Of a stretch of DNA of 64,000 bases, positions 16,152-52,072 are shown in pieces. The stretch covers positions 9,653 to 73,652 of the forward strand of contig DAOUUU010000002.1 of the NCBI GenBank assembly GCA_030667985.1. Reading direction: 5' to 3'. The position numbers and the translations under genes are program-made. This stretch comes from Candidatus Krumholzibacteriota bacterium. Its GTDB lineage: Bacteria; Krumholzibacteriota; Krumholzibacteriia; Krumholzibacteriales; Krumholzibacteriaceae. The number at the start of each line of letters is the position of its first letter. Positions within the stretch are counted from its first letter, which is position 1. The notes below the pieces were generated by a model, which did no database searches, was not told where the DNA came from, and saw only the letters and a list, made by a program, of their open reading frames with translations.

Positions 16152-16160
16152 CGGAGCCGA

Positions 16161-28509: not shown

Positions 28510-28513
28510 TAAA

Positions 28514-30253: not shown

Positions 30254-30337
30254 GAGGGACAGCGCCGGCCTGGGCCTTCCTTGTAGAGAATGTATATATG
30301 AACGGTCCGTGAGGCTCGGTGAGCCGGCGGGCCGTTT

Positions 30338-31495
30338 CTATCTGCCGAGCTCGATCCCGAGGGATTCGGCGGTTCCGACCATCTGGCCCTTCGGATCCAC
30401 CCGTTTCAGCTTCTTTACGGCGCTCTCGATCGTCGCCGATGCGATACGCCTTCCCCTGAGGCAGACCATCTTCCCGAATCCGCCGTCGGCAATGAGATTG
30501 ACCGCTTCGACTCCGAAACGTGTCGCGAGGATACGGTCATAGGTAGTCGGCGTGCCTCCCCTCTGCAGATGACCGAGCACGGCCACCCTCGTCTCCAGTG
30601 TTGTGCAAAGGCCGATATTCTCGGCCACCCACCTTCCTATTCCTCCGAGGCGCCCCGGCCGGCCATCCATGCCGGGCTCGATCTCGTAGATTTTCTTGCC
30701 GTCCGCCGGCATAGCCCCCTCGGCGACGATGACGATGCTGAACCTGCTGCCCGAGTTCTTTCGCTGACTTATGTGCTCGCAGATCCTTCCGAGGTCGAAT
30801 GGGATCTCCGGAATGAGTATGACGTCGGCTCCGCCCGCGATTCCCGCTTCGAGGGCGATCCAACCGCAATCGCGCCCCATGACCTCTAGCACGAGGATCC
30901 TGTGATGGCTCTCGGCCGTCGTATGGAGCTTGTCGAGCGCGTCAGTAGCGCTGTTGACCGCGCTGTTGAATCCGAACGTCACGTCGGTTACTCCGAGATC
31001 GTTGTCGATCGTCTTGGGAATCCCTATCACCGGTACCCCCTTTTCGAATAGCGCCTGAGTGATCTTCATCGTACCGTCTCCGCCGACGGCGATCAGGACA
31101 TCGATCTCGAGCTCCTTTATCCGTTTTACTATATCGTTGGTTACATCTCTGTGGACGATCTTGCCCCCCTCCCTGATCGGGTAGTTGAGCGGGTTGCCCC
31201 TGTTCGAGGTGCCGAGGATGGTCCCGCCCCTCGCCTGCAGGCCCCGGACATCCTTGGATGTGAGTTTCCGGCAGGTGTCTGCACGGAGGAATCCATCATA
31301 ACCATCATGGATGCCGAGGACCTCCCAGCCGTGCCGGAGCACGGCCGCGCGGACGACTCCACGTATGACCGCGTTGAGGCCGGGACAATCGCCTCCTCCC
31401 GTGAGGATGGCTAGCCGCTTGATCCGGGAGGGATCGGGCATGGCGTGGCTTATTTTCTTCGGTTTTCCATTCATGGCTTTCTTGGCATGCGGCAT
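30338..31495 (-). CDS. pfkA: 6-phosphofructokinase (long, group III / PPi-PFK-like form)
   Basis: Motifs RLAILTGGGDCPGLNAVIRGVV, IAVGGDGTMK, PKTIDNDL, and MGR. Mixed ATP/PPi signature residues (Gly in GGDG, Lys in PKTIDNDL). Confidence 0.85.
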   Translation of the reverse strand: MPHAKKAMNGKPKKISHAMPDPSRIKRLAILTGGGDCPGLNAVIRGVVRAAVLRHGWEVLGIHDGYDGFLRADTCRKLTSKDVRGLQARGGTILGTSNRGNPLNYPIREGGKIVHRDVTNDIVKRIKELEIDVLIAVGGDGTMKITQALFEKGVPVIGIPKTIDNDLGVTDVTFGFNSAVNSATDALDKLHTTAESHHRILVLEVMGRDCGWIALEAGIAGGADVILIPEIPFDLGRICEHISQRKNSGSRFSIVIVAEGAMPADGKKIYEIEPGMDGRPGRLGGIGRWVAENIGLCTTLETRVAVLGHLQRGGTPTTYDRILATRFGVEAVNLIADGGFGKMVCLRGRRIASATIESAVKKLKRVDPKGQMVGTAESLGIELGR

Positions 31496-31653
31496 CTGTC
31501 AAAGCACCTCGCCTTCTATCGAATTGACTGTATGTAGGTCTCGATCGACATGAGCCGGCCGGATTTCGAATAGAGCAACCGGCGGCGACACGGACCATTT
31601 AATCCGAAACGGAGAGTATATTCAACACCGATTCTGTCCTGGGGGCTACGCTC

Positions 31654-31682
31654 TTGACCCGTAGGCACAAATATGGTATCTT
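31654..31682 (+). promoter_or_regulatory. sigma-70-like promoter TTGACC-N17-TATCTT upstream of the YHS-like gene
   Basis: TTGACC at 31654-31659, 17-nt spacer, TATCTT at 31677-31682. About 85 nt upstream of ATG 31767. Confidence 0.35.
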
Positions 31683-31766
31683 CGATGTGCAGTATGTGGT
31701 AAGAATACAATACATGCGAAGTATTATGAGATTGTCGGCCCGCAGGGCCCAAGGGAGGATCAAGGA

Positions 31767-32108
31767 ATGAAAAGATCGCTGCTTCTATTTCTCGTGGCTA
31801 CCGTGGCTCTATCGTTCGGATGCGGTAAAAAGGAAGAGGCACAGAAGTCGGATGTGGCCGTCAAGGAAAAGGTCCAGAGTACCAGGAAGGTCATGACGCC
31901 GGGAGAGACCCCGGAGGCGGCGAAGGATGGCACCTCCAGGAAATCGACCGTGGAAAAGGCCATGATCGTCGATGCGGTCACCGGGGAGAAGATCATAAGC
32001 GGGGATATACCCTATTCATATCTATATATGGACAAGACCTACTTCTTCAAGACCGAGGAGAACCTGCTCCTCTTCAAGCAGGATCCCCAGAAATATATAA
32101 TTAAGTAG
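31767..32108 (+). CDS. YHS/TRASH-like domain lipoprotein lacking the metal-binding cysteines
   Basis: Lipobox LSFGCG. C-terminal DAVTGEKI...YMDKTYFFKTEENLLLFKQDPQKYI follows the YHS pattern (DPVCGM...GKTYYFCS...F..NPEKY) with Cys replaced. RBS AGGGAGGA. Confidence 0.45.
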   Translation: MKRSLLLFLVATVALSFGCGKKEEAQKSDVAVKEKVQSTRKVMTPGETPEAAKDGTSRKSTVEKAMIVDAVTGEKIISGDIPYSYLYMDKTYFFKTEENLLLFKQDPQKYIIK

Positions 32109-32176
32109 GAGTGACAAGCCGTTTGCCAGTCGACTGGCTGGGCATTGTACACTCGTATTGTTGATAATGATTTCTT

Positions 32177-32203
32177 ATGCCTCCTCAGGAGGCATTTTTA
32201 TTG
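32177..32203 (+). terminator. rho-independent terminator (perfect 8-bp stem ATGCCTCC/GGAGGCAT, loop TCA, then TTTTTATT)
   Basis: atgcctcctcaggaggcatttttatt is read directly from the sequence, 70 nt downstream of the YHS-like stop. Confidence 0.6.
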
Positions 32204-32555: not shown

Positions 32556-33047
32556 ATGAAAAGGAGTCTTTTGGCTGCGGTCCTTGTTCTCGTTCTGACC
32601 GTGTGCGCTTCAGCCGCCTATGGGCAGGGCCCGGAACTGTTCGGCGAGATGAGTGCGCGCAAGATCGTCATGAGCGAGGATAACCGCGAGGTCGCGGTGC
32701 CGGCGGACCAGGTTTTTCCCCTCGACTGCGTCGAGTACACGCTGAGGTATGAAAACACGGGTAGCGCCTCGGCGACGGGAATCAACCTGATAGGTCCGAT
32801 ACCAGATGGCACTGTTTACCTGGACAAGACGGCTACCGGCATCGACGGGGCGGATCCCCTTTTCAGTATCGATGGCGGCAAGACCTACCAGGAAGTCCCC
32901 ATCACCTATACCGTCGTCAATGAGAACGGCGAGGAGGAGGCCAGGGAAGCGACTCCCGACATGATCACCCATGTCCAGTGGCACATGGAAAGCGATCTCG
33001 ATGCCGGGCAGGACGTAGTCGTCTCTTACCGCGTGCAGGTAAAATGA
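32556..33047 (+). CDS. small secreted DUF11 (conserved repeat domain) protein
   Basis: Signal peptide (LVLTVCASAAYGQ) and a single DUF11-like unit (VFPLDCVEYTLRYENTGSASATGINLIGPIPDGTVY). Strong RBS GAAGGAGGG. First gene of a co-directional four-gene locus. Confidence 0.55.
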   Translation: MKRSLLAAVLVLVLTVCASAAYGQGPELFGEMSARKIVMSEDNREVAVPADQVFPLDCVEYTLRYENTGSASATGINLIGPIPDGTVYLDKTATGIDGADPLFSIDGGKTYQEVPITYTVVNENGEEEAREATPDMITHVQWHMESDLDAGQDVVVSYRVQVK

Positions 33048-33111: not shown

Positions 33112-35808
33112 ATGATGAAACTTCGTATTTCAGGGCTGGTCGTAGTTGCTCTGATGCTGTCGTTGCTCCTTATAGGCACGACGGCTCAGGCGCAGACACC
33201 GGCCGGCACCACGATCCGGAACCAGGCTTCGGCCACGTTCGAGGATCTGATCGGCAACACCTACACGGCGACGTCGAATGAAGTCACGACCATCGTTCTG
33301 CCCGTGTACGGTCTTTCAATTCTTCCGGATGACTCGGGAGATGACCCACCTTCCGTGCCGGCTTTAACCCAGACGGCGATACCGGGCCAGACCGTATATT
33401 TCAGTTACAACCTGACCAACACCGGTAACGACGCAGATTCCTACACGCTCCTGCCGTTGATTCACGCTGGTACGTCGATGCTTATAGGTCTCGGCGACAT
33501 CACGATCTATCACGATCTGAACGGCAACGGTGTGCTCGACGGCGGCGAGCCCGCGATTTCGGCGGGCGGCGTTCCGGGCAACATCGGCCCGATAGTAGCG
33601 GGTACCACGGTGAACCTCCTGGTCAGCTATCAGGTTCCCGCCGCCGCTGTAGCCGGTATGGTCGCTTATGTCGGCATTGACGGAACGTCCGTCGGCGACG
33701 TTGCGCAGATCGATACGAGGAACTACCACCTGGCGACGGTCGTAAGCGACGCGACGCTCACGGCTGCCAAGACCGGTCTGCCCGCGAATGTCGATCCGGG
33801 CAACACGATTACCTATACGATCAGCGGCGCCAATGTCGGTAACGATGTCGCTCACGGTGTGACACTGACAAGTATCCCGGCTCTCACCGGCGTGCTCGTT
33901 TATGACATCATCCCGACCGATCCTTCGACCGGGTTGCCTCTGGGCGTCACAAGCACGGCGGGCGCTCCAGCGGGCGGCACAGTACTCTATCTGCCCTTCG
34001 GAAGCCCGACAGCCGGTTCGCCCGAGACCTGGGCATGGTCGTCGAGCTCGGCTGCCGGAGATATCGCGGTCGGGTATATCACCAACGGCGATATGGCAGT
34101 CGGCCAGAACTACAGCTTTACGTATGATCTCACCGTGCCCGTGACGATGCTGGCCGGTATCATCAACAACATCGGTAACGTCGCTTTCGTCGACAATAAT
34201 CCCGGTACTCCCGATCCGACGATCGTTGTGACGAACAACACGCAGATAGACGTGAATGTCGTCGCGGCTGTTCTCATCGGTCCGAACGGAGCGCCGGGCG
34301 CTGGAGCGCCTCCAGCGTACAACGACGACGTTCAGGCCGTTCCGCTGGCATACGCCAATACGACGGTCGATTTCATCAATACGGTTCGGAATGACGGTAA
34401 CGCGGCGGACGAGATCAATATTACTCTCGACCCCCTCTCGACCTTCCCGGCCGGTTATACGATCCAGTTCTTCCGCATGGACGGCGTGACACCGCTCGGT
34501 ACGGGCGGGGACGCCATTCCCGATGTCGGAACGGTCAACCCCGGCGCCACGGCGGACTTCATCGTTCGCGTGCAGATACCGAGTGACGCGGCGGCGGGAG
34601 GCCCCTACCAGGCCATAGTTCAGGCGACTTCGGTCAATGACGGGACAGCGTGGAACCTGACGACCGATGAGATCACGGCGGTCAACCCCGCTTCGGTCGA
34701 TATCGGTAACTACGATGGTCTCGCCGGGACGAATAACGGCCTCGTGAACCTGTTCACCGACCCCGGCCTCAACGTCGATTTCCCTCTCGACGTGATCAAT
34801 ACCGGCGGATCGAGCGATACTTACACGCTCAGTTCCCTGTTCGCCGCAGGCTGGTCGGTGACCTTCTATAATGATCTGGACGGCAACGGGGTCCTCGATC
34901 CTCCCGAGCTGGCGCCGATCGGCAACATCGGCCCGGTCATCGCGGGGGACGAAGTGCACGTCATCGCCCGGGTCGCTGTTCCCGCGGGCGAGGTGCCAGG
35001 TGTATTCCCCGTGACCTTCAGGGCAACCTCATCGAACAACCCTGTAATCTTCGACGAGATAGCGAACACAGTGACCGTCAATACGGCCGCGTCCGTTACG
35101 ATCGTTCCCGATCTTAGCGGAACTGGTACGGCCGGCGGCACAATCCGCTATCAGCACACGGTCACGAACACGGGCAACGTCAATGATACGTTTATGCTCA
35201 GCCATGTGAGTTCGAACGGATGGAGCTACGCCTACTTCGATCTCCTGAACAACCCGATCGTTTCGGTCACTCTCAATCCGGGAGTCAGCGAAGATGTCGT
35301 CGTTCAGGTGTCGATTCCCGGCGGTGTGGCTGTCGGAACGGTCGAGACCGGTACGATCACCGTTACCGGTAACGGCACCGGCGCCACTGACAGTGCCATC
35401 GACGTGACGACGATCGTCGCAGGCAACCTCGTTCTCACCAAGTCGGTCAACCCTGTAGGCAATCAGGTTCCGGGTACGGAGCTCACCTACAGGACCGATT
35501 ATGCGAACGTCGGTCTTGCCGGCATCACGACGATCTATATATATGATGCAATCCCGGCCTGGACGCAGTACCGCCACCTCTCCGCGACAACCGGTACGCT
35601 AGCTCCGGGTATCACGGCGATTGCTATCGAGTTCAGTGACAATGGCGGCGCCACATGGGTCTACGGCCCCTCCAGTGGCGGCGGCGGAGCGCCTGCCGGC
35701 TTCGATGCCAACGTGACCAATGTGCGCTGGGTCCTGACCGGCACGCTGGCTGGCGGCGGCGGAACCGCCGACGGCGTTGGATTCATCGTGAGGATCATAG
35801 CCGAATAA
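33112..35808 (+). CDS. large secreted DUF11-repeat cell-surface protein
   Basis: 898 aa with signal peptide and multiple DUF11-type units (YFSYNLTNTGNDADSYTL; TYTISGANVGNDVAHGVTLTSIP; YQHTVTNTGNVNDTFML; LTYRTDYANVGLAGITTIYIYDAIP). Rich in Thr/Gly/Asn. Antisense ORF 33364..34959 is judged spurious. Confidence 0.65.
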   Translation: MMKLRISGLVVVALMLSLLLIGTTAQAQTPAGTTIRNQASATFEDLIGNTYTATSNEVTTIVLPVYGLSILPDDSGDDPPSVPALTQTAIPGQTVYFSYNLTNTGNDADSYTLLPLIHAGTSMLIGLGDITIYHDLNGNGVLDGGEPAISAGGVPGNIGPIVAGTTVNLLVSYQVPAAAVAGMVAYVGIDGTSVGDVAQIDTRNYHLATVVSDATLTAAKTGLPANVDPGNTITYTISGANVGNDVAHGVTLTSIPALTGVLVYDIIPTDPSTGLPLGVTSTAGAPAGGTVLYLPFGSPTAGSPETWAWSSSSAAGDIAVGYITNGDMAVGQNYSFTYDLTVPVTMLAGIINNIGNVAFVDNNPGTPDPTIVVTNNTQIDVNVVAAVLIGPNGAPGAGAPPAYNDDVQAVPLAYANTTVDFINTVRNDGNAADEINITLDPLSTFPAGYTIQFFRMDGVTPLGTGGDAIPDVGTVNPGATADFIVRVQIPSDAAAGGPYQAIVQATSVNDGTAWNLTTDEITAVNPASVDIGNYDGLAGTNNGLVNLFTDPGLNVDFPLDVINTGGSSDTYTLSSLFAAGWSVTFYNDLDGNGVLDPPELAPIGNIGPVIAGDEVHVIARVAVPAGEVPGVFPVTFRATSSNNPVIFDEIANTVTVNTAASVTIVPDLSGTGTAGGTIRYQHTVTNTGNVNDTFMLSHVSSNGWSYAYFDLLNNPIVSVTLNPGVSEDVVVQVSIPGGVAVGTVETGTITVTGNGTGATDSAIDVTTIVAGNLVLTKSVNPVGNQVPGTELTYRTDYANVGLAGITTIYIYDAIPAWTQYRHLSATTGTLAPGITAIAIEFSDNGGATWVYGPSSGGGGAPAGFDANVTNVRWVLTGTLAGGGGTADGVGFIVRIIAE

Positions 35809-36108
35809 CAGACGTAAAGATCTCCGGTTCCGGGGTCCGATTCCCCGGGGCCGGGATCTCGGGTTGGTGATAAGAAGAATTATAAAATGAACTAGAAAGC
35901 ATAAGCTAAACGATTAAGCGAAAATGCTGAATTGGAGGTGGGTTTCCATGGTGAGATCGGCCTCTAATTCAGTTTTAGGAGGAAGGTACGGACGATGCGC
36001 CCGAACGATGACATAACCGGTTGATACGTACTCGGTTAGATGATGTCGCGTTTCGGGTTTTCGTCGTTTTCGAGGCGAGACGTGATTGGAAGGGCAAAAA
36101 TAAGAAGA

Positions 36109-39100
36109 ATGCTGATGCGCCTGTCGGGCAGGCGGGGGCTGGTCTTTTGCTGGATTTTCCTGCGGATCCTGTTCTTTCCGTCGATGGCGGTGGCACAGGT
36201 GCCGCCCGCCGGGCAGACGATCATGAGCCGGTCCATCGCTACGTTCGAGCAGGGCGGTTCCCTGTTGAGCGTCGTTTCGAACGAGGTCTCCCTCGACGTG
36301 CTCGCCCTTTTCGGGCCGGTGCTCCTGCCCGATGGAACGACCTCTGCTCCCGCAAACATCGCCTACGCCTTCAGCGGCGAGCGGGCATCCTTCCCGTACC
36401 GCTTGATCAACACGGCCAACACGGATGATACGTTCGAACTCGCCGTTTCCTATGAGTCCCCATCAGATTTCGTCCCATCGCTTACCGAGATATTTCTCGA
36501 TCTTGACGGAGACAGCCTGATCGATCCGGGGGAACCGCCGGTCACCAGCGTGGGGCCGCTCGGCTCCGGCGAGGAGGTCGCGCTCGTGCTCGCCGCGGAT
36601 CTGCCTGCAGGGCTCACCGGCGGCGAGACGGCACATATCGATCTTGCCGCGCGTTCTGTGGCCGATACATCGCTCGTCGATGGGGGAAACATTGTCCGTA
36701 TCGTCGCGAGGGACGAGGCGCGCGTGGAGCTGACCAAGTCCTCCTCGAGCGCGGCTGTGATGCCGGGGGATGTTATTGCCTTCACCGTCTCCTTCTCGAA
36801 TACGGGGGAGAGGTCAGCGACGAATGTTATCCTGTCCGATCCGATAGACAGCGGCGGCAATACGACCGGAGCTGTCTTTGTCGACGGCAGCGCGGCGGCC
36901 ACACCGCCTGGTATAATCGAGTATTTCGACGAGGCGACTGGATTGTGGGTCGATATCGCTCCTCCTGCCGATCGCGTAAAGGGGGTGCGCCTCCTGCTCG
37001 GCAGTCTCACCGCCGGGGAAACGGGGAGTCTGGATTTCAGCCTCTCGATACCGAACGGCATGCTCGCCGGCACGATCTTTAACACGGCCGCAGCCGGTTT
37101 CACCGGCGGAGACGGTCGTCCCTACTCCCTTCCGTCGAACGAGGTGGCTGTTCAGGTCGGCCGCGTCAGCACTCTATATCTCGGGCCGCCCGGCAATCCC
37201 ACGGCCCCCGAGGGAGGGCCCACGGACAGGAACGTGATTGCGCTCAATGCCGTCGATACCGTCTACACCTTCTGGCATGAGCTCCTGAACGCCGGCAACT
37301 TCACTGATACTCTCCAGATCGGCGTGATCGACTCAACGGTTATACCGGGTGATTGGCAGATGACATTCATCGATACGACGGGGTCGCCCCTAACGCCACT
37401 CACATCCAACAGGGCCAACGCGGGGCCCATTGCCGTCGGCGGGTCGCGAATCGTGGGGCTCAGGATAAGGTCTACCCGGGAAGGCTTCAGGGCTTTCCCC
37501 GGCAGGGAGCTCGCGTTTCTCGTCGAGGCGCGTTCCCTCGTCGACCCGAGCGCCGCCAATACCGTTCAGGATATCTTCGCGAAGACCGACCTGCCCCTGC
37601 TCTCGATCGTCCAGACGATACGCGAGCCGGTGGCGCAGGTCGGCGATGTGTTGAGCTGTGTTGTGACGATCGAGAACATAACCGACGAAACGCTGGTGGA
37701 CAGCGTATTAGTCATCGAGAATCTATCCCCCGGACTCGGCTTCGCGGGTGGAAACGACATACCGGAGATAAGCGGCAACGTTCTCACTTGGAACGCTGGA
37801 AGACTCGAGCCCGGGGAAAAGAAATATTTCGTCTTTCGAGCCAGGGTCAAGGTTGGGCAGGAATGGGACAGGCTTGTGAACAACGCCTGGGTCCACGGCG
37901 TCTCGGAGATCGGAGAGGTGGTTTCCGACGGTCCGGCGCAGGCCTCGATCAAGATCGTCGAGGGGATATTCACCAGGCGCGGGATCATACTGGGAGGCGT
38001 CTTCCTGGACGCCGACGGCGACGGCCTTTGGGGAGAGGAAGAGCGCGGGATACGCGGAGCTTCCATCTTTATCGAGGACGGGACCTACGCGGTGAGTGAT
38101 TCGTCGGGCCTCTATTCGATACCCGGTGTCGAGGAGGGGACGCATGTCGTTCGCATCGATCCCTCGACCCTGCCCGATTCGTTGATTCCGGGTCCGGGAA
38201 GCTACTTCGATCTCGGATCCTCCGAGGGCCGGCTCGTCGTAATGCCCCCCTCCGGAAACCGTACGGTCTATTTCCCTCTCGTTGGGCGCGTCGGTCAGGT
38301 CGCGGCGGTGGATGGATCATCCGCCGGTGTGGAAGGAGAGCGGGACGTTTCGATGAGCGCTATCTCCAGAGAGGCGGCGGGTCAAAGTCTGAACGTACTT
38401 CCCTTTGGAACGATCGCCGGCTCATCAGCGGAGGATTCCGGCAGCGGCCTTTCGGCCGGAACCGATACGACGGAAACTTTCGAGGCGATAACGATTCCCA
38501 GTTCGCACTTCAGGGAGGGGAGTTCCTACCTCGAGGAGATCCCGATCAGCCGGATCGCGGCGTTGAGTCTCTGGATTGGCGAGCATGCCGGCTGGAACGT
38601 TTCCATTTCCGGTTATACGGACAGCATTCCTATCAGCACCTCGGAATTTCCGTCCAACTTCGAGTTGTCGCTCGCCCGGGCCCGCTCGGTCTACCAGCTG
38701 CTCAGGATGAACGGCATACCGGAGGACCGGATGGATTACATGGGCTATGGCTCGAGGATGTCTCTCGCCCCGAACGATACCGAAGCGGGGAGGAAGCTCA
38801 ACGGACGTGTGGAGATCAAGGCCGTGCCGCCGGACGATTATGAGGATGGAAGTCAGGCGCTCGCCGAGTTCCTGAGCCGGCCGGATACTACAACATTCAT
38901 GCTCACCGATGACGCCGGGGTCTGCGCCGATATCATGAGTCCGGAGGAGGGCCGGGTCTTCCACGATCGCGCCGAGATCGATGTCGAGATCACCTCGCCG
39001 CTCGGCTCGCGGATCGAGCTCTACGTGAACAACGTGCCGGTCGGCACAGAGCGCATCGGGCAAAAACAGATAGATATCCGGGGTGGCACACTCGAGTATA

Positions 39101-41916
39101 TCTTCTACGGTGTGCAGATCAAGGAGGGGAAGAACGATATCCTGGTCGTTTGCGACGAGCACGGCGGAAAGAGAAACACATGCGTCCGGCGGGTATATCT
39201 GGCAGGAAGGGTGGCTGGGATCGTGCCCGAGCACGAACTGGTGCAGGCGCCCGCCGACGGCAAGACGAATCCGGAACTCGTGTTCCTCGCGATGGACTCG
39301 AACGGGCTTCCCGTCCGGGACGGTATCTTCGCCACGGTGACAGGCCCAAAGGATCTCATCGATTCGCTCGATGTGAATCCGCACCAACCGGGCATCCAGG
39401 CGGTAACGCGGGAGGGCAGGATATCGCTCAGCCTGCCGCCATCGAGGAATTCGAGGAGGGACAAGATCCGCCTCTCCCTCGATGGATCATCGAGCTCCTG
39501 CATCATGCATTACACATCGCCGCTCAGGGACTGGTTCCTGTTCGGATACGGAGAAGGCACGATCGGTTACGGACAGCTCACCGGAACGGGCACAACTCAC
39601 AGATCCCAGGAGCGCTATCATGACGGCCTCTACGCCGAGGGCAAGATCGCGTTCTACGGCCAGGGGGAGATTGCGGACGGCAACCTGCTGACCGCGGCCG
39701 TGAACACGAGGCCGCTTTACAATGACATGCTATTCAAACGTATCGAGCCGGAGAAGTACTATCCGATATTCGGCGACGCGAGCGAGCTCGAATTCAACGC
39801 CGCGTCGAGGAGCGGGACTTACCTCAGACTGGACCACAGGAGCTACTCGGCTATGCTCGGTGATTTCCAGACCGATCTTGGAGACAAGGAATTCACTCGC
39901 TATCACCGTTCCTTCAACGGCCTGCAGGGGGAGTCGCGTTTCAGCAGGGGGAGCGTCAAGGCCTTCATAACAAATACGGATCAACTTACATATCAGGAAG
40001 AGATACCGGCCGAGGGTGTGAGCGGATTCTACTTTCTCTCCAACTATCCGCTCGTAGAGAACAGCGAGAAGATACGTGTAGAGGTCAGGGACCGTTATCT
40101 GCCCGAGAGGATCCTGCGCGTAGATCACAAACAGACGAACAGGGATTACGATATCAACTACATGGATGGAAGCATTCTTTTCAAGGAGCCGGTGCCGGCC
40201 ACGGACAAGAACCTCAATCCCGTCACTATCGTAGTCAGCTACGAATGCAAGAGCGCAGGAGAAGAGAATTTTATCTACGGGCTCAGATCCTCGGTCGACG
40301 TCACCGACAGCCTCTCGGTGGGAATCACTGCAGTGCTGGAGGAGGAGGGAGTCGAGAATTCCTCGCTCGTCGGTATCGATCTAGAGGGAGCGATCTACAG
40401 AGGGCTCGTCGTGGAGAGCGAATACGCTCACAGCGAGAAATTCCTGTTGGGCGGCGGGGACGCCTTCAGGATCAGGATGAAAAACAGAGGAACGGACGGT
40501 GCCAAGTGGCAGGCCTACTACCGTGAGATCGATAACAATTTTTTCAATCCGTCCTTCTCCGGGGGCAAGACCGAGCTCGGAAGCAAAAAGTACGGCGGGG
40601 AGCTCGATTATCGTATCAGCCAGGCCTTTACACTGAGAGCGGAAGGGTACCGCCACAACCTTCGCGAGAGGGACGAGCAAAGGAGTTTTGCCGGTGTCAT
40701 GGGCAAGTACTACACGAGTATGCTCGACGGCAAGCTCGGTCTGGCGTCCGCTTCTCACAGCGATACGAGGGAGGGGGATCACTCCTCCGTTCTGCTCATG
40801 ACCGGGCTTTCCTTCGACCGCGACCGGACCGCCGCCAGCGTCGAGTGGGATCAGAAGCTAGCCGGCGAGGAGGTCCAGGAGTATCCGAACCGCCTCCAGG
40901 CCAAGCTCTCGAGGCGGCTCTACAAGTACGTGAATGCGGTGCTGCGGCACGAGTACCGCACAGGCAGCAGGACAGGCACGAGGCACGCGACGCAGCTCGG
41001 GCTCGAGTCGAACGTAAGCGAGAACCTTCATCTCTTCTCGCGCTACAGGCTCGAGGGGGCCATGAGCGGCGAGCGCGGTCAGGCGACGATCGGTATGAAA
41101 AACAAGTTCAGGCTCTCTCCCGATCTGACCGCGACTTTCAGCGCCGAGAAGCTCGTGACGGTGAGCGGCTCTGCCATCGACGATTTCCTCGCCTTCAGGA
41201 GCGGGGCGCTCTACACGCCGGTGGGCAAGGATTACCGTCTCAAGGCGGATTACGAGCTGCGCCTAGAAAACGAGAGGCGCAAGCACCTTGCCGGCCTCGC
41301 CGGGATCAAGAGAATGAGCGATCACTGGTCCGCCCTGCTGAAGGGAGACCTCTGGTACAGTGACGAGAAGATAGAGGCGAATAGGATAAAGGGAAGCTCG
41401 ACTCTGGGCTTAAGCCTCCGCCCGCGCGGCCACGGCTCGGTGGCGTTCCTCTCGCTTCTCAGGGCCGATTACGAGAGGAACAGCCAGGCCCATCCGGACG
41501 GGATCGACCGTGAGATCCTGGCGTCGTTCGAGGCGAACTATCCGGTGAACCGGGATTGGGAGCTCGAGGGAAAGATCGCGGGCCGATGGATCGAGAACAC
41601 ATTCGAGTCCTATACGGCCTCTACTTCGACATATCTCTACCAGGGGCAGGTGATCCGGATCCTCGGGAACAGCTGGGATATCTGCCTAGTGGGGCGCATC
41701 GTGCATCAGCACGAGACAAACACGGTAAGGTACGGCGGAGGGGTCGAGCTCGGCAGGCTCATGGCCGAGAACCTCTGGCTCGGGATCGGTTACGATCTCG
41801 GCGGGCACGAGGACGGCGACTCGCCGATCAACGATTTCGCGAGCGAAGGGTTCCACGTTCGTCTGCGGCTCAAGTTCAGCGAACGGCTGCTGGGAGTTTT
41901 CAACGGGATGGAGTGA
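36109..41916 (+). CDS. giant (about 1936 aa) envelope protein: N-terminal DUF11 repeats, SdrD-B/CnaB-like domain, internal OmpA-like peptidoglycan-binding domain, about 1000-aa C-terminal putative beta-barrel
   Basis: Signal peptide (MLMRLSGRRGLVFCWIFLRILFFPSMAVAQ). DUF11 units (VELTKSSSSAAVMPGDVIAFTVSFSNTGERSATNVILSDPI). SdrD-B-like GIILGGVFLDADGDGLWGEEERGIRGASIFIEDGTYAVSDSSGLYSIPGVEEGTHVV. OmpA_C motifs NVSISGYTDSIPI...NFELSLARARSVYQLL...GYGS...NGRVEI. C-terminal third shows the alternating aromatic/hydrophobic strand pattern of OM barrels (...GFHVRLRLKF). The ORF track start at 36040 is also possible. Confidence 0.65.
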   Translation: MLMRLSGRRGLVFCWIFLRILFFPSMAVAQVPPAGQTIMSRSIATFEQGGSLLSVVSNEVSLDVLALFGPVLLPDGTTSAPANIAYAFSGERASFPYRLINTANTDDTFELAVSYESPSDFVPSLTEIFLDLDGDSLIDPGEPPVTSVGPLGSGEEVALVLAADLPAGLTGGETAHIDLAARSVADTSLVDGGNIVRIVARDEARVELTKSSSSAAVMPGDVIAFTVSFSNTGERSATNVILSDPIDSGGNTTGAVFVDGSAAATPPGIIEYFDEATGLWVDIAPPADRVKGVRLLLGSLTAGETGSLDFSLSIPNGMLAGTIFNTAAAGFTGGDGRPYSLPSNEVAVQVGRVSTLYLGPPGNPTAPEGGPTDRNVIALNAVDTVYTFWHELLNAGNFTDTLQIGVIDSTVIPGDWQMTFIDTTGSPLTPLTSNRANAGPIAVGGSRIVGLRIRSTREGFRAFPGRELAFLVEARSLVDPSAANTVQDIFAKTDLPLLSIVQTIREPVAQVGDVLSCVVTIENITDETLVDSVLVIENLSPGLGFAGGNDIPEISGNVLTWNAGRLEPGEKKYFVFRARVKVGQEWDRLVNNAWVHGVSEIGEVVSDGPAQASIKIVEGIFTRRGIILGGVFLDADGDGLWGEEERGIRGASIFIEDGTYAVSDSSGLYSIPGVEEGTHVVRIDPSTLPDSLIPGPGSYFDLGSSEGRLVVMPPSGNRTVYFPLVGRVGQVAAVDGSSAGVEGERDVSMSAISREAAGQSLNVLPFGTIAGSSAEDSGSGLSAGTDTTETFEAITIPSSHFREGSSYLEEIPISRIAALSLWIGEHAGWNVSISGYTDSIPISTSEFPSNFELSLARARSVYQLLRMNGIPEDRMDYMGYGSRMSLAPNDTEAGRKLNGRVEIKAVPPDDYEDGSQALAEFLSRPDTTTFMLTDDAGVCADIMSPEEGRVFHDRAEIDVEITSPLGSRIELYVNNVPVGTERIGQKQIDIRGGTLEYIFYGVQIKEGKNDILVVCDEHGGKRNTCVRRVYLAGRVAGIVPEHELVQAPADGKTNPELVFLAMDSNGLPVRDGIFATVTGPKDLIDSLDVNPHQPGIQAVTREGRISLSLPPSRNSRRDKIRLSLDGSSSSCIMHYTSPLRDWFLFGYGEGTIGYGQLTGTGTTHRSQERYHDGLYAEGKIAFYGQGEIADGNLLTAAVNTRPLYNDMLFKRIEPEKYYPIFGDASELEFNAASRSGTYLRLDHRSYSAMLGDFQTDLGDKEFTRYHRSFNGLQGESRFSRGSVKAFITNTDQLTYQEEIPAEGVSGFYFLSNYPLVENSEKIRVEVRDRYLPERILRVDHKQTNRDYDINYMDGSILFKEPVPATDKNLNPVTIVVSYECKSAGEENFIYGLRSSVDVTDSLSVGITAVLEEEGVENSSLVGIDLEGAIYRGLVVESEYAHSEKFLLGGGDAFRIRMKNRGTDGAKWQAYYREIDNNFFNPSFSGGKTELGSKKYGGELDYRISQAFTLRAEGYRHNLRERDEQRSFAGVMGKYYTSMLDGKLGLASASHSDTREGDHSSVLLMTGLSFDRDRTAASVEWDQKLAGEEVQEYPNRLQAKLSRRLYKYVNAVLRHEYRTGSRTGTRHATQLGLESNVSENLHLFSRYRLEGAMSGERGQATIGMKNKFRLSPDLTATFSAEKLVTVSGSAIDDFLAFRSGALYTPVGKDYRLKADYELRLENERRKHLAGLAGIKRMSDHWSALLKGDLWYSDEKIEANRIKGSSTLGLSLRPRGHGSVAFLSLLRADYERNSQAHPDGIDREILASFEANYPVNRDWELEGKIAGRWIENTFESYTASTSTYLYQGQVIRILGNSWDICLVGRIVHQHETNTVRYGGGVELGRLMAENLWLGIGYDLGGHEDGDSPINDFASEGFHVRLRLKFSERLLGVFNGME

Positions 41917-41941: not shown

Positions 41942-44900
41942 ATGGAGATAGATAGGAGAATGATGACGGTCAGAATCGAAGATAGAGCAATGAGAGTGAA
42001 CCGGTCCGGGCGGTTGGCAGCGCGCGCCGTTTGCCTGGCCCTGTTGTTGATCGTCACGATGTCCGTATCCGCCATCGCTGCAGAACTCGTTATAAATGGC
42101 GGTTTCGAGGCGGGCGATTTCTCGGGCGGTTGGGTCGACGGTGCGGGGAATATAATGAGCAGCCAATTGAATCCGAGCTGGGCCGACCACGCCGTGTTGC
42201 TCGAAATGCCCTGTACGGGCAACTACTCGGCGCTCCTAGGATTCAAGTACGAATTGCCCCAGCGCCACTTCTACGGTTTCATGTACTACGATGTCACGAT
42301 TCCCAATGATATCTCGGCAGCGACGCTCTCGTTCGTGTATCGCCACATGGGATACGATGGTGATGGGCGCGATCCATTCAGCGTCGAGATCAGGGACCTG
42401 GGCGGCGTTACGCTCGAGACGGTCCTTACACACACATTCCCCGAGCGGACAGGTGTCTTCAAGGAGACCGGTTGGCTCTTATTCAGCTATGATATGTCGG
42501 CCTATGTCGGCCAATCGGTCCGTATCTATTTCGAACAGTTGAACAACATCGATAACAACTACGAGACCTGGGTCTATGTCGACGATGTCTCGCTCGAAGT
42601 GGACGGGTGGGTCGATCTTGTAGTGGATGGTGACGGGGACGATATCTTCGGAACTCCGGGCAGTGGAGCTGGCGGTACTTCGGCGCAGAGCACCGAGGTC
42701 GACAGGTCTTTGAGCTATTATATCGATATCGAGAACGAAGGCCCCTCAGACGATTCTTACGATCTCAGCCTGGCGCTGCCTGCCGGTTGGACCGCAGTCG
42801 TAAGATACGGAGGGACCGATTACTCATTCCCTTGGACCACGCCGATAGTTACGGCTGGAAACACGATACAGGCGGAGATCGTCATTACTGTGCCGGCGGG
42901 GGAACCGCCCGGCATGTATACGAGCATACTCGATGCTGTCAGCATCGCCGCCGGGGACCGATACGACAGTGTTTCACTCTTGACCAACGTAGTGCCCGCT
43001 CCCTATCAGCCCGATCTCGCCGTCGACGGCGATGGTATCGGCGTGATAGATCAGGAGGGCGCCGAAGGCGGTTATTCGATCCAGACAGCACTGCCCTCCA
43101 CTACGGTCGACTTCGCGATCGAGCTGGTGAATTTCGGCACGGAGAATGACTCGTTTGTGATATCTTGGGCATCGGAACCGCCGCTCTCCGCCGTCGTTCT
43201 CGACGGGGCGATAGTGCATGCCGCTCCATTCACGAGCGCGGTTATACCTCCGGGTGTTTCCCTCTTCTATACGATACGTGTCACGGTGCCCGCTGGAGTG
43301 CTCGGTGGAGATTACTCGACCGAGCTCTTCGCCCGGTCTACAGGCGACATTCTCAAGTTCGACGGCATCACGGCCGTTACGCGTGTACTCGCCCCCGCCG
43401 TAGATATGCTGATCTGCGGCAGCGGCGACGACATAGTAGATCCGACCGGCTCGGGCCTCGGCGGAAGCTGCACATCGATCGGAGTTCCAGGCGAGATAGT
43501 ATACTTACCCATCGTGCTTCAGAATGAGGGAACCGTACCTGATTCGTTCAGGCTCGCCTGGACGAGGCCGTGGAGTGGATGGACGGCAGTCATCACCGAC
43601 GGCGTGAATACCTATCCGTTTCCCTGGACGACGCCTCTCTTTGCCCAGGGCGAGGAACGGACCTATTTCCTTGCGGTCACAATATCGGACAATGCCGATT
43701 ATACTACCTATCTTTTTCTTCTCGACGCCGTATCGATGACCGACGGCGCGGCGAGCGAGAGCGTTACCGCTTCGGTGACAGTCAGCTCGGTCAACGAGAT
43801 AGATCTATGGATCGACGGCAGCGGCGACGATATCTACGGCCTGCTGGGTTCGGGCCTCGGCGGTTTCTCGACGCTCGCGGGAAGCCCTGGAGAAACGCTC
43901 TTCTTTACGATCACACTCGAGAACGAGAGCGGCACAGATCTCTTCGATCTCTTCTGGACCGCTCCGGCCGGCTGGGAGGTGCTTATCGGCGACTCAACCT
44001 CCTCGATGCGAGGCGTCACATCGGGCACCTATACACTCGAGGTTCGTGTGCCGGCAACTGCCTCGGAGGGCACTTTTCAGGTCATCCTAGACGGACAGAA
44101 GGTGGACAAGCCATACCTAGTCGACAGCGTCAGCGGTAGTATCGTCGTAACGAGGAGCTATATCGTCGATGCGGTCATAGACGGAGACGGTGATGGTATC
44201 TACGGCACACCGGGGCTTGGTGACGGAGGTTTCTCGGCGGGGAGCGCCTTCCCGGGCACACGGATCACATTCTCCCTCGAGCTGCAGAACGATGGGAGCG
44301 AACCAGAGGGCTATACCGTCTCCTGGAACTCGATCGCGGGGTGGACCGCAGCGCTCGATGGGAATAGCTCGCCATACACCACGGTAGTGATACCGGCCGG
44401 AGGCCAGGCGGTTTATTCATTCGATGTAGATGTACCGGTCTCGGCATTGACGGGGGATTACGATTTTATCATCGATGCTGTCTCGACTGTCGATCCGAGC
44501 AATACGGAGAGCGTCACTGCCCGAGTCACGGTCGTGCCCGTTCCTCCAGCATTCATAGCGGTCACGGTCTTCGACGACATCGACCATGACGGTTCATACG
44601 ATCCGGGCGAGCCAGGCCTGGTTGGAGTGACAGTATTGGTGACCGATCCCGGCGGGGATATCACGGGGCTAACAGGAGCGGCAGGAACCTATATCTTCCA
44701 GGTGGACGCCGGCCTGCTGCGTGATGTGATTGAGGCCAATCCTGCCGGCATGTATTCCCTGAGCCCCGATACGGTCTCGGTGCCCGCTGGAGCAGCGGGG
44801 GATACAGCCTGGGTCTACTTCGCGGATGTAATGGGCCCGACGCTAGTTCCGAACAACTTAGCGAACGCGCCGGCCGGTGGATTCGCCGATTTTGCGCACT

Positions 44901-45577
44901 CGATCACGGCCGGCACTACGGGGCAGGCGGTCATCTCCGCCGTGGTTCCCGCCGGATGGGTGGAGAGCTTCTACCGCGACAACAACGGCGACGGACTCCT
45001 GGATCCGGGCGATACGCCTCTCACAGCTGCCGACCTCGATCTCGACCCCGCGGTGCCGGGTCTCGATGTCGTTCCGATCATACTCCATGTTTTCATTCCA
45101 CCCACCGTGCCGGCCGGGACGGTCGAGGCGATCATTGTCACGTTCGATCAGACTTTCCGCGGGACGGTCGTAACGGCGACGGTCTCGGTAATCGATCAGG
45201 TGACGGTGCTCGCATCGGCAAGCGGCCAGCTTCAGCTCGTAAAGGAGGTCGATCTCGCGGCGGCTCAGCCGGGCGGCGTGATTACCTACACTATTATTTT
45301 CTCCAATCCGGGAACGGAGAATGTCCAGGAGATCGAGATCATCGATCCGACCCCCGCCGAAGTCGATATCGTACTGGATGCGTTCGGCCCGGGACAGGAT
45401 ATCGCCTGGGTGAACGGAGCGGTCACGACCTACCTGACTGCCGAACCGGCCGACGCTGACGAGGCGATGTATATCGCTGCGACTAGAACGCTGCACGTTC
45501 TCCTCTCGCGGCAGGCTCCCTTCGCCCTTGCGCCGGGAGAAGAGGGTAGAATCATTTACATGGTGAGGATCCGGTAG
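41942..45577 (+). CDS. large secreted repeat protein: N-terminal CBM/galactose-binding-like domain, five tandem ~130-aa DGDGDD-motif modules, C-terminal DUF11 unit
   Basis: Signal peptide (RLAARAVCLALLLIVTMSVSAIAAE). N-terminal jelly-roll-like ELVINGGFEAGDFSGGWVDG...ETWVYVDDVSLE. Modules VVDGDGDDIFGTPGSGAGGTS / LAVDGDGIGVIDQEGAEGGYS / ICGSGDDIVDPTGSGLGGSC / IDGSGDDIYGLLGSGLGGFS / IDGDGDGIYGTPGLGDGGFS, each followed by (P)AGWTAV and VPAG. C-terminal DUF11 unit VITYTIIFSNPGTENVQEIEIIDPTP. Start could be 41942, 41960 or 41990. Confidence 0.6.
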   Translation: MEIDRRMMTVRIEDRAMRVNRSGRLAARAVCLALLLIVTMSVSAIAAELVINGGFEAGDFSGGWVDGAGNIMSSQLNPSWADHAVLLEMPCTGNYSALLGFKYELPQRHFYGFMYYDVTIPNDISAATLSFVYRHMGYDGDGRDPFSVEIRDLGGVTLETVLTHTFPERTGVFKETGWLLFSYDMSAYVGQSVRIYFEQLNNIDNNYETWVYVDDVSLEVDGWVDLVVDGDGDDIFGTPGSGAGGTSAQSTEVDRSLSYYIDIENEGPSDDSYDLSLALPAGWTAVVRYGGTDYSFPWTTPIVTAGNTIQAEIVITVPAGEPPGMYTSILDAVSIAAGDRYDSVSLLTNVVPAPYQPDLAVDGDGIGVIDQEGAEGGYSIQTALPSTTVDFAIELVNFGTENDSFVISWASEPPLSAVVLDGAIVHAAPFTSAVIPPGVSLFYTIRVTVPAGVLGGDYSTELFARSTGDILKFDGITAVTRVLAPAVDMLICGSGDDIVDPTGSGLGGSCTSIGVPGEIVYLPIVLQNEGTVPDSFRLAWTRPWSGWTAVITDGVNTYPFPWTTPLFAQGEERTYFLAVTISDNADYTTYLFLLDAVSMTDGAASESVTASVTVSSVNEIDLWIDGSGDDIYGLLGSGLGGFSTLAGSPGETLFFTITLENESGTDLFDLFWTAPAGWEVLIGDSTSSMRGVTSGTYTLEVRVPATASEGTFQVILDGQKVDKPYLVDSVSGSIVVTRSYIVDAVIDGDGDGIYGTPGLGDGGFSAGSAFPGTRITFSLELQNDGSEPEGYTVSWNSIAGWTAALDGNSSPYTTVVIPAGGQAVYSFDVDVPVSALTGDYDFIIDAVSTVDPSNTESVTARVTVVPVPPAFIAVTVFDDIDHDGSYDPGEPGLVGVTVLVTDPGGDITGLTGAAGTYIFQVDAGLLRDVIEANPAGMYSLSPDTVSVPAGAAGDTAWVYFADVMGPTLVPNNLANAPAGGFADFAHSITAGTTGQAVISAVVPAGWVESFYRDNNGDGLLDPGDTPLTAADLDLDPAVPGLDVVPIILHVFIPPTVPAGTVEAIIVTFDQTFRGTVVTATVSVIDQVTVLASASGQLQLVKEVDLAAAQPGGVITYTIIFSNPGTENVQEIEIIDPTPAEVDIVLDAFGPGQDIAWVNGAVTTYLTAEPADADEAMYIAATRTLHVLLSRQAPFALAPGEEGRIIYMVRIR
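42600..44560 (+). repeat. five tandem ~390-bp coding repeat modules (protein-level repeats of ~130 aa) within the 41942..45577 gene
   Basis: Module motif starts at about 42622, 43015, 43416, 43807 and 44177. The repeats are conserved at protein level (DGDGDD.fG..GSG.GG) and only loosely at DNA level. Confidence 0.5.
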
Positions 45578-51980: not shown

Positions 51981-52072
51981 AGCTATATTCCCCCTTGCAT
52001 ATCGATTTCCGCGGACAAGTTCCTCGTGCCGCAGAGTTTGCACCTTTTTATAGGTGGTTAAAGGAGTAACAC

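Follow-up and report, generated by a model that had tools for sequence, protein, structure and literature searches.

Four co-directional genes in a stretch of a Candidatus Krumholzibacteriota genome (contig DAOUUU010000002.1, positions 9,653 to 73,652 of the forward strand; the whole 64,000-nucleotide stretch is called the window below) encode signal-peptide proteins with CLIPPER-type domains, the family known until recently as DUF11. The largest product, C1935, joins CLIPPER and other immunoglobulin (Ig)-like domains to an internal OmpA-like domain and a C-terminal module predicted to form a giant β-barrel. In its partners A163, B898, and D1211 the chain breaks off just before the last β-hairpin of a C-terminal CLIPPER domain, and the hairpin that they lack stands alone at the mature N termini of B898 and C1935. 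We call a protein with the orphan hairpin a donor and one with the truncated domain an acceptor. At what we judge to be even chances, C1935 is the outer-membrane base of a four-gene, Sec-dependent surface fiber, which would be assembled without a chaperone by donation of hairpins and would bring both its own pore and its own peptidoglycan anchor.

The features on which the argument draws are the following, in window coordinates.

32556..33047, + strand: A163, a 163-residue secreted single-CLIPPER protein, acceptor only (DUF11 match)
33112..35808, + strand: B898, an 898-residue secreted protein, donor plus acceptor (choice-of-anchor T-like)
33196-33303, + strand: N-terminal CLIPPER hairpin of B898, residues 29-64, TPAGTTIRNQASATFEDLIGNTYTATSNEVTTIV (hairpin hidden Markov model (HMM), 50.5 bits)
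35710-35805, + strand: C-terminal CLIPPER domain of B898, lacking the terminal hairpin
36109..41916, + strand: C1935, the protein under study, donor only, with OmpA domain and barrel module
36109..36198, + strand: C1935 signal peptide, residues 1-30 (from sequence; same position in homologs)
36199..36300, + strand: C1935 orphan N-terminal donor hairpin, residues 31-64, QVPPAGQTIMSRSIATFEQGGSLLSVVSNEVSLDV (hairpin HMM, 40.5 bits)
36727..37095, + strand: C1935 complete internal CLIPPER/DUF11 domain (Pfam match at residues 207-329; full domain about 205-350)
37999..38160, + strand: C1935 SdrD_B / CarboxypepD_reg-like Ig domain, residues 631-684 (weak signals, below the Pfam threshold)
38518..38802, + strand: C1935 OmpA_C-like peptidoglycan-binding domain, residues 804-898 (Pfam, NCBIfam, and PDB matches; AlphaFold2)
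38929..39516, + strand: C1935 Ig-like sandwich domains, residues 941-1048 and 1056-1136 (AlphaFold2 strands)
39535..39675, + strand: C1935 two 17-residue strands, residues 1143-1189 (AlphaFold2)
39817..40182, + strand: C1935 inserted compact β-domain, residues 1237-1358 (conservation; AlphaFold2)
40219..41877, + strand: C1935 predicted barrel wall, 32 consecutive antiparallel strands, residues 1371-1923 (AlphaFold2, both models)
41942..45577, + strand: D1211, a 1211-residue secreted protein, acceptor only (N-terminal MAM / choice-of-anchor-J-like domain)

Truncated CLIPPER domains and the hairpins that match them

A complete internal CLIPPER domain runs from its acceptor strand through a short linker into a final two-strand hairpin of the form '..G..I.N.A.......SN.V...V', as at residues 317-350 of C1935. 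A163, B898, and D1211 stop right after the acceptor strand ('...pG..g.v.[YF].V.v'), their C-terminal ends reading DAGQDVVVSYRVQVK, GGGTADGVGFIVRIIAE, and APGEEGRIIYMVRIR, respectively, each up to the stop codon. Mature B898 (TPAGTTIRNQASATFEDLIGNTYTATSNEVTTIV) and mature C1935 (PPAGQTIMSRSIATFEQGGSLLSVVSNEVSLDV) start with the missing hairpin directly after the signal peptide; A163 has no N-terminal hairpin. The C1935 hairpin is colinear with residues 317-350 in the internal domain of the same protein, and the last domain of D1211 aligns locally with C1935 residues 205-314 and then stops. When the B898 hairpin is joined to D1211, the composite is colinear with C1935 residues 205-350 and gapless at the junction, and the same is true of A163 and of the B898 C terminus.

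The pattern extends well beyond the window. Across the 83 loci in which we examined the cluster context, 72 open reading frames (ORFs) stop at the acceptor strand and go no further. Where the strand lies inside a protein it behaves differently: all 24 copies inspected, of 26, run on by eye into hairpin-like sequence, although the hairpin HMM scored just 5 of the 26. At the other end of the chain, family members from different phyla have the motif TPxGTxIxNxAxxx[YF] right behind the signal peptide. Among 174 N-terminal hairpins, which share it in the form TPAGTxIxNxAxxx[YF], Gly4 is kept in 150, Ile7 in 155, Asn9 in 151, Ala11 in 141, and an aromatic residue at position 15 in 168. Applied to 127 long representatives, the hairpin HMM scored 71; many of the others show the motif by eye or are truncated at the N terminus.

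The roles are distributed in a regular fashion. Proteins of about 160 residues have the truncated C-terminal domain and no N-terminal hairpin, one or two proteins of 300-900 residues have both, and the barrel proteins have the hairpin and no truncated domain. This division recurs in loci of Erythrobacter, a gammaproteobacterium, Povalibacter, Geobacter, Acidobacteriota, Nitrospirota, Lentisphaeria, and Marinimicrobia-like bacteria. Where the barrel module has a gene of its own, as in loci L033 and L035, the hairpin is found on the stalk protein next to it.

Gene set and gene order also recur in related loci. More than 40 of the 83 loci, spread over Krumholzibacteriota, Nitrospirota, Acidobacteriota, Lentisphaeria, Desulfobacterota, Alpha-, Gamma-, and Zetaproteobacteria, Campylobacterota, and Bacteroidota, have a member of the A163 family upstream of the module gene, and these proteins always end in ...THIRWxLxxxLxPGxxGxVxYRVxVK at the stop codon; a search with A163 against the PDB returned nothing meaningful. 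D1211, whose place after the module gene is kept in related loci, is a candidate tip adhesin, and both it and B898 resemble choice-of-anchor surface-protein families. The cluster encodes no other secretion component, and no PapD-like periplasmic chaperone is found among its genes or those flanking it.

A possible covalent lock at some joints

In the crystal structure of a CLIPPER domain (9IFR), the isopeptide lysine lies in the first strand, the catalytic aspartate about 33 residues later, and the asparagine in the first hairpin strand, about 22 residues before the domain end (PMC12617251). The internal domain of C1935 carries K210, D244, and N325 at the same spacing. The terminal acceptor domains of B898 (LVLTK...IYDAIP) and D1211 (LQLVK...IIDPTP) keep the lysine and aspartate without an asparagine strand of their own, and the B898 hairpin supplies an aligned asparagine. 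Lysine and aspartate are likewise retained in 25 of 37 mid-size or large acceptor domains that have no asparagine strand in their own chain.

Two clades depart from this arrangement. In the Geomonas/Geobacter clade the acceptor lysine and aspartate are lost together with the replacement of the donor asparagine by histidine; in the window's own clade, the C1935 hairpin has serine instead of asparagine and the small protein has glycine at the aspartate position. The joint loss in Geomonas/Geobacter counts in favor of a split triad, but these are just two events at the level of clades. Outside the two clades, covariation between lysine/aspartate in the small protein and asparagine in the barrel-protein hairpin is inconsistent, and we therefore make no claim of a covalent bond that involves the small subunit. 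Covalent locking is plausible, judging by the residues at hand, at the B898-B898 and B898-D1211 joints, not as a general property. Donor-strand exchange combined with isopeptide locking has precedents in BsaA of Clostridium perfringens (bioRxiv 10.1101/2024.11.04.621531) and, reportedly, in archaeal threads (PMC9715654).

A predicted giant barrel at the C terminus of C1935

From about residue 910 to its end at 1935, C1935 has no match in Pfam or NCBIfam. We collected 84 homologs of the C-terminal region and supplied AlphaFold2 with an 83-sequence alignment. A model of residues 790-1935 reached a mean predicted local distance difference test score (pLDDT) of 83.4 and a predicted template modeling (pTM) score of 0.62, and a second model restricted to residues 1130-1935 gave 83.2 and 0.76; most barrel blocks lie at pLDDT 85-97. 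The second of the two Ig-like sandwich domains is Big_1/Invasin_D3-like (APADGKTNPELVFLAMDSNGLPVRDG), and the two long strands after it are probably the first two of the barrel. The β-domain inserted behind this pair is the most conserved part of the family, with motifs NSEKIRVEVRDRY...DYDINYMDGSILF, and could serve as a plug or gate. The 32 strands of the predicted wall are connected by turns of 2-8 residues and followed by a short helix at residues 1925-1931.

Several features speak for an outer-membrane barrel. Hydrophobicity clearly alternates along 20 of the 32 strands, the final one (GFHVRLRLKF) has the look of a β-signal and is conserved in the family, and turn lengths alternate in the C-terminal half, as expected for a chain that ends in the periplasm. 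Foldseek comparison of the barrel-only model with the PDB returned outer-membrane β-barrels as 50 of the 50 top matches, and most matches of the longer model were of the same kind. They include Deinococcus SlpA, LptD, MtrB, TonB-dependent receptors, FimD/PapC, and SprA; probability is 1.00 for nearly all, with template modeling (TM) scores of 0.15-0.29, so that no specific likeness to any solved barrel emerges. Sequence comparisons point in fewer directions. The module profile found no solved barrel among PDB sequences, only GH2-type C-terminal Ig domains, which correspond to the two sandwich domains. A Pfam scan of 27 family members gave Big_1, Invasin_D3, and Glyco_hydro2_C5 matches in 4-5 of them and weak matches to OMP_b-brl, DUF2490, Porin_7, and SlpA_C in a few, the last in a single member at 2.9e-4.

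We infer, with good support, that the C-terminal 800 or so residues of C1935 form a closed outer-membrane barrel of 32-34 strands; closure is deduced from the even strand count and topology parity, the dyad pattern of hydrophobicity, the β-signal-like last strand, and the restriction of structural matches to barrels. By the standard formula for barrel radius, 32-34 strands would give a lumen several nanometers across, wide enough for a folded Ig-like domain.

A large family without a name

C1935 is a typical member of a large unnamed family comprising at least 3395 clusters at 50% identity. A search of the module profile against 1.84 billion representatives of such clusters gave 7791 matches at E<=1e-3, 5403 at E<=1e-10, and 3395 at E<=1e-30. 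The module is almost always C-terminal, in proteins of 1000-2700 residues and at most 6889, and the source records call these relatives simply 'DUF11 domain-containing protein', 'OmpA family protein', or 'hypothetical'. When one genome of each species was scanned with a closer 13-sequence alignment, more than 575 module loci were confirmed. The closest relatives of C1935 come from Krumholzibacteriota and Latescibacterota (54-88% identity), and further loci are found in Desulfobacterota (Geomonas, Citrifermentans, Geobacter), Nitrospirota, Acidobacteriota, Lentisphaeria, Bacteroidota, Marinimicrobia-like bacteria, Alpha-, Beta-, Gamma-, and Zetaproteobacteria, and Campylobacterota.

Some members are unusual in length or label. 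N-terminal regions of 2000-5700 residues precede the module in P0194 (6889 residues), P0206 (3493), and P0170 (3002). In Geomonas and Nitrospiraceae (L025, L026) the barrel protein runs about 450 residues past the module; in Geomonas relatives this tail holds an OmpA domain, and a gene of about 400 codons comes next. Homologs of 50-60% identity occur on contigs labeled Candidatus Micrarchaeota or Candidatus Bathyarchaeia archaeon (L016, QMVG01000017.1, and P0010), which are most likely mis-binned bacterial contigs.

The OmpA domain and the topology of the chain

The C1935 gene lies within an ORF at 36040-41916 (+), and we take the ATG at 36109 as its start, in agreement with the start position in homologs; the resulting product of 1935 residues begins with a signal-peptide-like segment, MLMRLSGRRGLVFCWIFLRILFFPSMAVA, presumably cleaved before glutamine. 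The internal CLIPPER domain (PF01345) scores 53.6 bits against a gathering score of 24.6, and residues of about 490-725 are conserved upstream of the module in distant loci. OmpA (PF00691) is detected above threshold, at 35.4 bits against 27.2. NCBIfam OmpA-type models (MotD, TssL, YiaD, PA1041, and others) give E values down to 3e-24 over residues 798-908, a sequence search of the PDB with C1935 yields only OmpA-like domains (7rjj, MotB, PomB) at residues 793-910, and AlphaFold2 models an α/β fold at residues 790-906 with pLDDT of about 80. The domain (GYTDSIPISTSEFPSNFELSLARARSV) contains the motif GYTD...LSLARA. In Acinetobacter baumannii OmpA, the aspartate and arginine of the TD...LARA motif reportedly contact the diaminopimelate of peptidoglycan; both residues are present in the C1935 translation.

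The sequence-only reading of this gene had described just such an order—extracellular-type repeats, an internal OmpA_C-like domain, and a large C-terminal barrel. Pfam, AlphaFold2, and Foldseek bear the order out, and the stretch between OmpA domain and barrel, for which that reading suggested a test for a plug-like module, resolves into two Ig-like domains and the inserted plug candidate. That reading went further, seeing in the internal OmpA domain a topological paradox or a novel topology, and here the family tells another story. Among the 147 best module representatives, the OmpA domain stands directly before the module in 60 (median gap 46 residues) and after it in 4, and it is absent from 83. 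In P0036 a signal peptide is followed by a SPOR domain, also peptidoglycan-binding, and then by the module, and the CLIPPER-SdrD_B-OmpA part is encoded by a separate upstream gene. Stalk (or stalk-OmpA) protein and module are the products of adjacent separate genes in L002, L033, L035, L061, L074, and L082; in Marinimicrobia-like bacteria and Bacteroidota, standalone modules of about 1030 residues, which have their own signal peptide and start at the first Ig-like domain, directly follow the stalk protein. One further apparent split, at 9992-13315 of L003 (P0021), where the module gene lies 45 nucleotides from a CLIPPER-OmpA gene, was rejected as a true split, its product having no signal peptide; a frameshift, stop, or assembly error is the probable cause.

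The module is, by its sequence contexts, an autonomous exported unit that tolerates a periplasmic wall-binding domain at either end. Both of its ends are probably periplasmic, because the OmpA domain can precede it, follow it, be swapped for SPOR, or reside in another protein, and because standalone modules exist. Both chain ends of an even-stranded barrel face the periplasm, and for this reason a peptidoglycan-binding domain N-terminal to the barrel is unproblematic. Wall-binding domains in that position are familiar from the SLH-barrel proteins SlpA/OmpM, the LysM-barrel protein intimin, and the AMIN-secretin PilQ. A paradox is left only on the assumption that the N-terminal CLIPPER region is extracellular; the simplest solution would then be to thread the chain a single time through its own wide barrel, leaving the OmpA domain behind as a periplasmic stopper, an arrangement that would be unusual without calling for a new membrane topology. 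The sequence-only reading was thus right in what it observed and right only in part in its interpretation, its topological paradox having no general force. What it missed is that C1935 is typical of its family and that the decisive context lies in the three neighboring genes.

Proposed assembly and rival explanations

A fiber built on these parts might assemble as follows. The subunits would cross the inner membrane via Sec, and the barrel would be seated in the outer membrane with both ends in the periplasm, where the OmpA domain would bind peptidoglycan and fix the assembly to the wall. A tip subunit, D1211 or A163 (each acceptor only), would enter the pore. B898, donor and acceptor in one, would form the shaft, added from the periplasmic side and joined head to tail, the N-terminal hairpin of one subunit completing the C-terminal domain of the subunit ahead. 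The hairpin of C1935, a donor only, would capture the base, ending growth and tying the fiber to pore and wall. Where an acceptor lysine and aspartate meet a donor asparagine, at B898-B898 and B898-D1211 joints, an intermolecular isopeptide bond may lock the contact. The fiber would pass through the barrel lumen, possibly together with the C1935 CLIPPER stalk of about 750 residues, or the stalk would stay periplasmic; pointing toward export are the N-terminal regions of relatives, which run to thousands of residues, and the choice-of-anchor-like nature of B898 and D1211.

A number of points weigh against this proposal. Complementation in trans is deduced from sequence, and surface exposure of the CLIPPER regions is assumed. 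Adding the hairpin to truncated domains raised the DUF11 score in Pfam chimeras only slightly (23.1 to 27.3 and 28.1 to 29.6) and that for DUF7507 from 18.3 to 19.0; with gains so small, the case for complementarity rests on pairwise colinearity. An HMM of the acceptor end, derived from the small family, gave no score for the B898 and D1211 C termini, and their assignment as acceptors rests on pairwise alignment for that reason. A seven-strand sandwich without the last hairpin might be stable by itself, and the N-terminal hairpin might pack in cis on the domain that follows it. Nor is the isopeptide triad found everywhere: most of the small family is without lysine and aspartate, and C1935 has the serine noted above. 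TM-scores do not exceed 0.29 for any solved barrel, and both barrel closure and the position of the inserted domain are deduced from the models rather than read from coordinates. Finally, no chaperone that would prevent premature assembly is evident in the cluster or its flanking genes.

The strongest rival, which we nonetheless think unlikely, would make C1935 a self-contained, autotransporter-like adhesin: the CLIPPER stalk would be a passenger that travels through its own barrel, the OmpA domain a stopper, the N-terminal motif a recognition or targeting element, and the neighboring genes independent. The order of passenger-like repeats, anchor, and C-terminal barrel does resemble type Va secretion, N-terminal regions of up to about 5700 residues (P0194) are too long for the periplasm, and stalk-OmpA and barrel form a single protein in some members and two in others; a published Acinetobacter CLIPPER adhesin, moreover, ends in an OmpA-like anchoring domain (PMC12617251). 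Such an adhesin would, however, leave unexplained why partner proteins across phyla end exactly one hairpin short and why the acceptor-only protein of about 160 residues is conserved together with the barrel gene. Its barrel would also far exceed those of type V systems, with 32-34 modeled strands against 12, and C1935 has no PF03797 match; on these grounds membership of the type Va autotransporters was rejected.

Somewhat more doubtful is an envelope tether combined with a large porin, in which the OmpA domain and Ig-like repeats would be periplasmic and would staple the outer membrane to peptidoglycan in the manner of SlpA, OmpM, and OmpA, the partners forming a periplasmic or envelope scaffold. 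The best Foldseek matches are indeed to Deinococcus SlpA, a 30-strand barrel with an N-terminal peptidoglycan-associated SLH domain, and the weak SlpA_C match in one relative and the OmpA or SPOR domains that flank the module fit the same picture, as does the chlamydial DUF11 protein OmcB, whose periplasmic location has long been debated. Yet N-terminal regions of thousands of residues, as in some relatives, cannot fit the periplasm, the OmpA domain is missing from the 83 representatives counted above, CLIPPER and choice-of-anchor-like domains are typical of surface proteins, and a tether leaves the donor/acceptor pattern without explanation. Least probable by our estimate, although favored by a barrel of SprA-like size, SprA among the Foldseek matches, a conserved Ig-like domain at the extreme C terminus of all three partners that recalls the C-terminal domains of type IX secretion system (T9SS) cargo, and T9SS cargo in the host organism itself, is a T9SS-like translocon, in which the truncated CLIPPER domains of A163, B898, and D1211 would be secretion tags for the giant barrel, as T9SS C-terminal domains are for SprA/PorV, and no polymer would form; it leaves unexplained an orphan N-terminal hairpin colinear with the missing part of the same domain and the retention of lysine and aspartate in acceptors, and the barrel shows no sequence similarity to SprA and a TM-score of just 0.17.

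None of the three rivals explains the precise complementarity of orphan hairpins and truncated domains, which is the observation from which the donor-hairpin fiber starts. There is a substantial chance that the cluster represents a distinct class of fiber-assembly system. The fullest version of that idea—a new and widespread class of diderm fiber, polymerized from split CLIPPER domains without chaperone or sortase, locked by Lys-Asn bonds in many lineages, and exported and anchored by a new 32-34-strand barrel fused to terminator and peptidoglycan-binding domain—we put forward tentatively, as a possibility that falls short of an even chance. A joint locked in this way would be a natural counterpart of the SpyCatcher/SpyTag arrangement.

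Relation to known systems

Chaperone-usher pili offer a close parallel. There, as proposed here from strong sequence-level complementarity, Sec-exported subunits have an incomplete Ig-like fold that is completed by the N-terminal segment of the next subunit, and the two systems have in common a logic of tip, shaft, and terminator, a large outer-membrane barrel with a domain inserted between strands, and the absence of an encoded inner-membrane or ATPase component. The ushers FimD and PapC are among the structural matches of the C1935 barrel, with TM-scores of at most 0.28. C1935 is not an usher, however: no PF00577 match is found in it at E<=0.1, and there is no chaperone gene. The chaperone-usher donor is a single strand, whereas here it is a two-strand hairpin of the CnaA-like CLIPPER fold; the usher barrel has 24 strands against about 32-34 in the C1935 model; and, unlike an usher, C1935 would unite pore, terminating subunit, and peptidoglycan-binding domain in one chain.

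Chaperone-free strand complementation, as we propose it for this cluster, is known from TasA-family BsaA fibers and, reportedly, from archaeal threads (PMC9715654). In both, the triad is reported to be split between neighbors, with asparagine on the donor and lysine plus an acid on the acceptor. Those fibers differ in having a TasA/camelysin-like fold rather than a CLIPPER/CnaA-like one, and they belong to monoderm or archaeal envelopes without an outer-membrane pore.

Other resemblances concern the barrel and its anchor. Deinococcus SlpA and OmpM-type SLH-barrel proteins have, like C1935, a peptidoglycan-associated domain N-terminal to a very large C-terminal barrel, and proteins of this type are the top Foldseek matches (8agd_A, 7zgx_A, 8ae1_A), at TM-scores of just 0.19-0.27; they carry SLH and a coiled coil instead of OmpA, without CLIPPER repeats or a partner gene cluster, and C1935 for its part has no SLH or SlpA_C match in Pfam. 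With the OmpA/MotB/Pal family C1935 shares the above-threshold OmpA_C-like domain and its peptidoglycan-contact aspartate and arginine, but a classical OmpA porin was rejected: there is no match to OmpA_membrane, the 8-strand barrel, and the OmpA_C domain is internal, ahead of an unrelated C-terminal barrel.

Type V proteins, intimin in particular, likewise combine Ig-like repeats and a barrel in one chain, to which intimin adds a peptidoglycan-binding domain in the periplasm, and the Big_1/Invasin_D3-like domain that adjoins the C1935 barrel adds to the likeness to intimin and invasin. The domain order differs, the peptidoglycan-binding domain of C1935 standing between 'passenger' and barrel, and assignment to the inverse autotransporters was rejected for want of a LysM or IAT_beta match and in view of the Big_1-like domain preceding the barrel. 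The SprA translocon, whose barrel has 36 strands, was rejected as well, with no Pfam match and Foldseek query-normalized TM-scores of 0.16-0.17. The Acinetobacter silvestris fibrillar adhesin B9T28_05395, a CLIPPER stalk followed by an OmpA-like anchor, resembles the family's split stalk-OmpA proteins; it has no barrel in the same chain, and its CLIPPER domains form intramolecular bonds (PMC12617251).

Genomic surroundings

Upstream of the cluster, at 28484-32195 of the window, lie genes for an AMP-binding enzyme, a phosphofructokinase (on the opposite strand), and a small YHS-domain protein, and the same order adjoins the cluster of a 62%-identical relative (L004, 388-5047). A terminator-like hairpin at 32177-32195 separates the YHS gene from A163. 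In Erythrobacter donghaensis (L001, MUYG01000005.1), the gene after that for the barrel protein encodes a CshA_NR2 / SpaA_3 adhesin-type head (15155-17086), and this alphaproteobacterial cluster is flanked by a two-component system, an EF-hand protein, and a GGDEF/EAL protein.

Downstream in the window, positions 47721-50918 (-) encode a 1065-residue protein with a papain-family C1 peptidase domain, a right-handed β-helix, and a T9SS sorting domain (Por_Secre_tail). This implies that a type IX secretion system is present in the organism, which is consistent with a member of the Fibrobacteres-Chlorobi-Bacteroidetes (FCB) group or Krumholzibacteriota. A 287-residue protein with a Peptidase_C39_2-like domain (E 1.9e-6) follows at 51180-52043 (-). 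No tRNA genes and no Rfam family at threshold were found in window positions 1-64000.

Implications

The literature that we searched contains no description of the module family or of such a mechanism in diderms; two apparent 'DUF11' matches concern other families, DUF1102 in the tafi paper and DUF1134 in a Brucella review. The components—outer-membrane barrel, OmpA domain, CLIPPER domains, and strand complementation—are known, and it is their combination that is new. If the barrel prediction is right, C1935 and its relatives would include some of the largest single-chain outer-membrane barrels, in a family of thousands of proteins for which neither Pfam nor NCBIfam has a model.

If the split-domain reading is right, Gram-negative-type bacteria would have a further route to surface fibers beside the chaperone-usher, type IV, type V, and curli systems. 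Such a route would account for the way in which isopeptide-type adhesin domains of 'Gram-positive-like' character reach diderm surfaces and stay there, and would offer protein engineering a natural supply of orthogonal catcher/tag pairs. The system is present in the cultivable genera Erythrobacter, Geomonas, Citrifermentans, and Povalibacter, and is therefore open to direct experiment.

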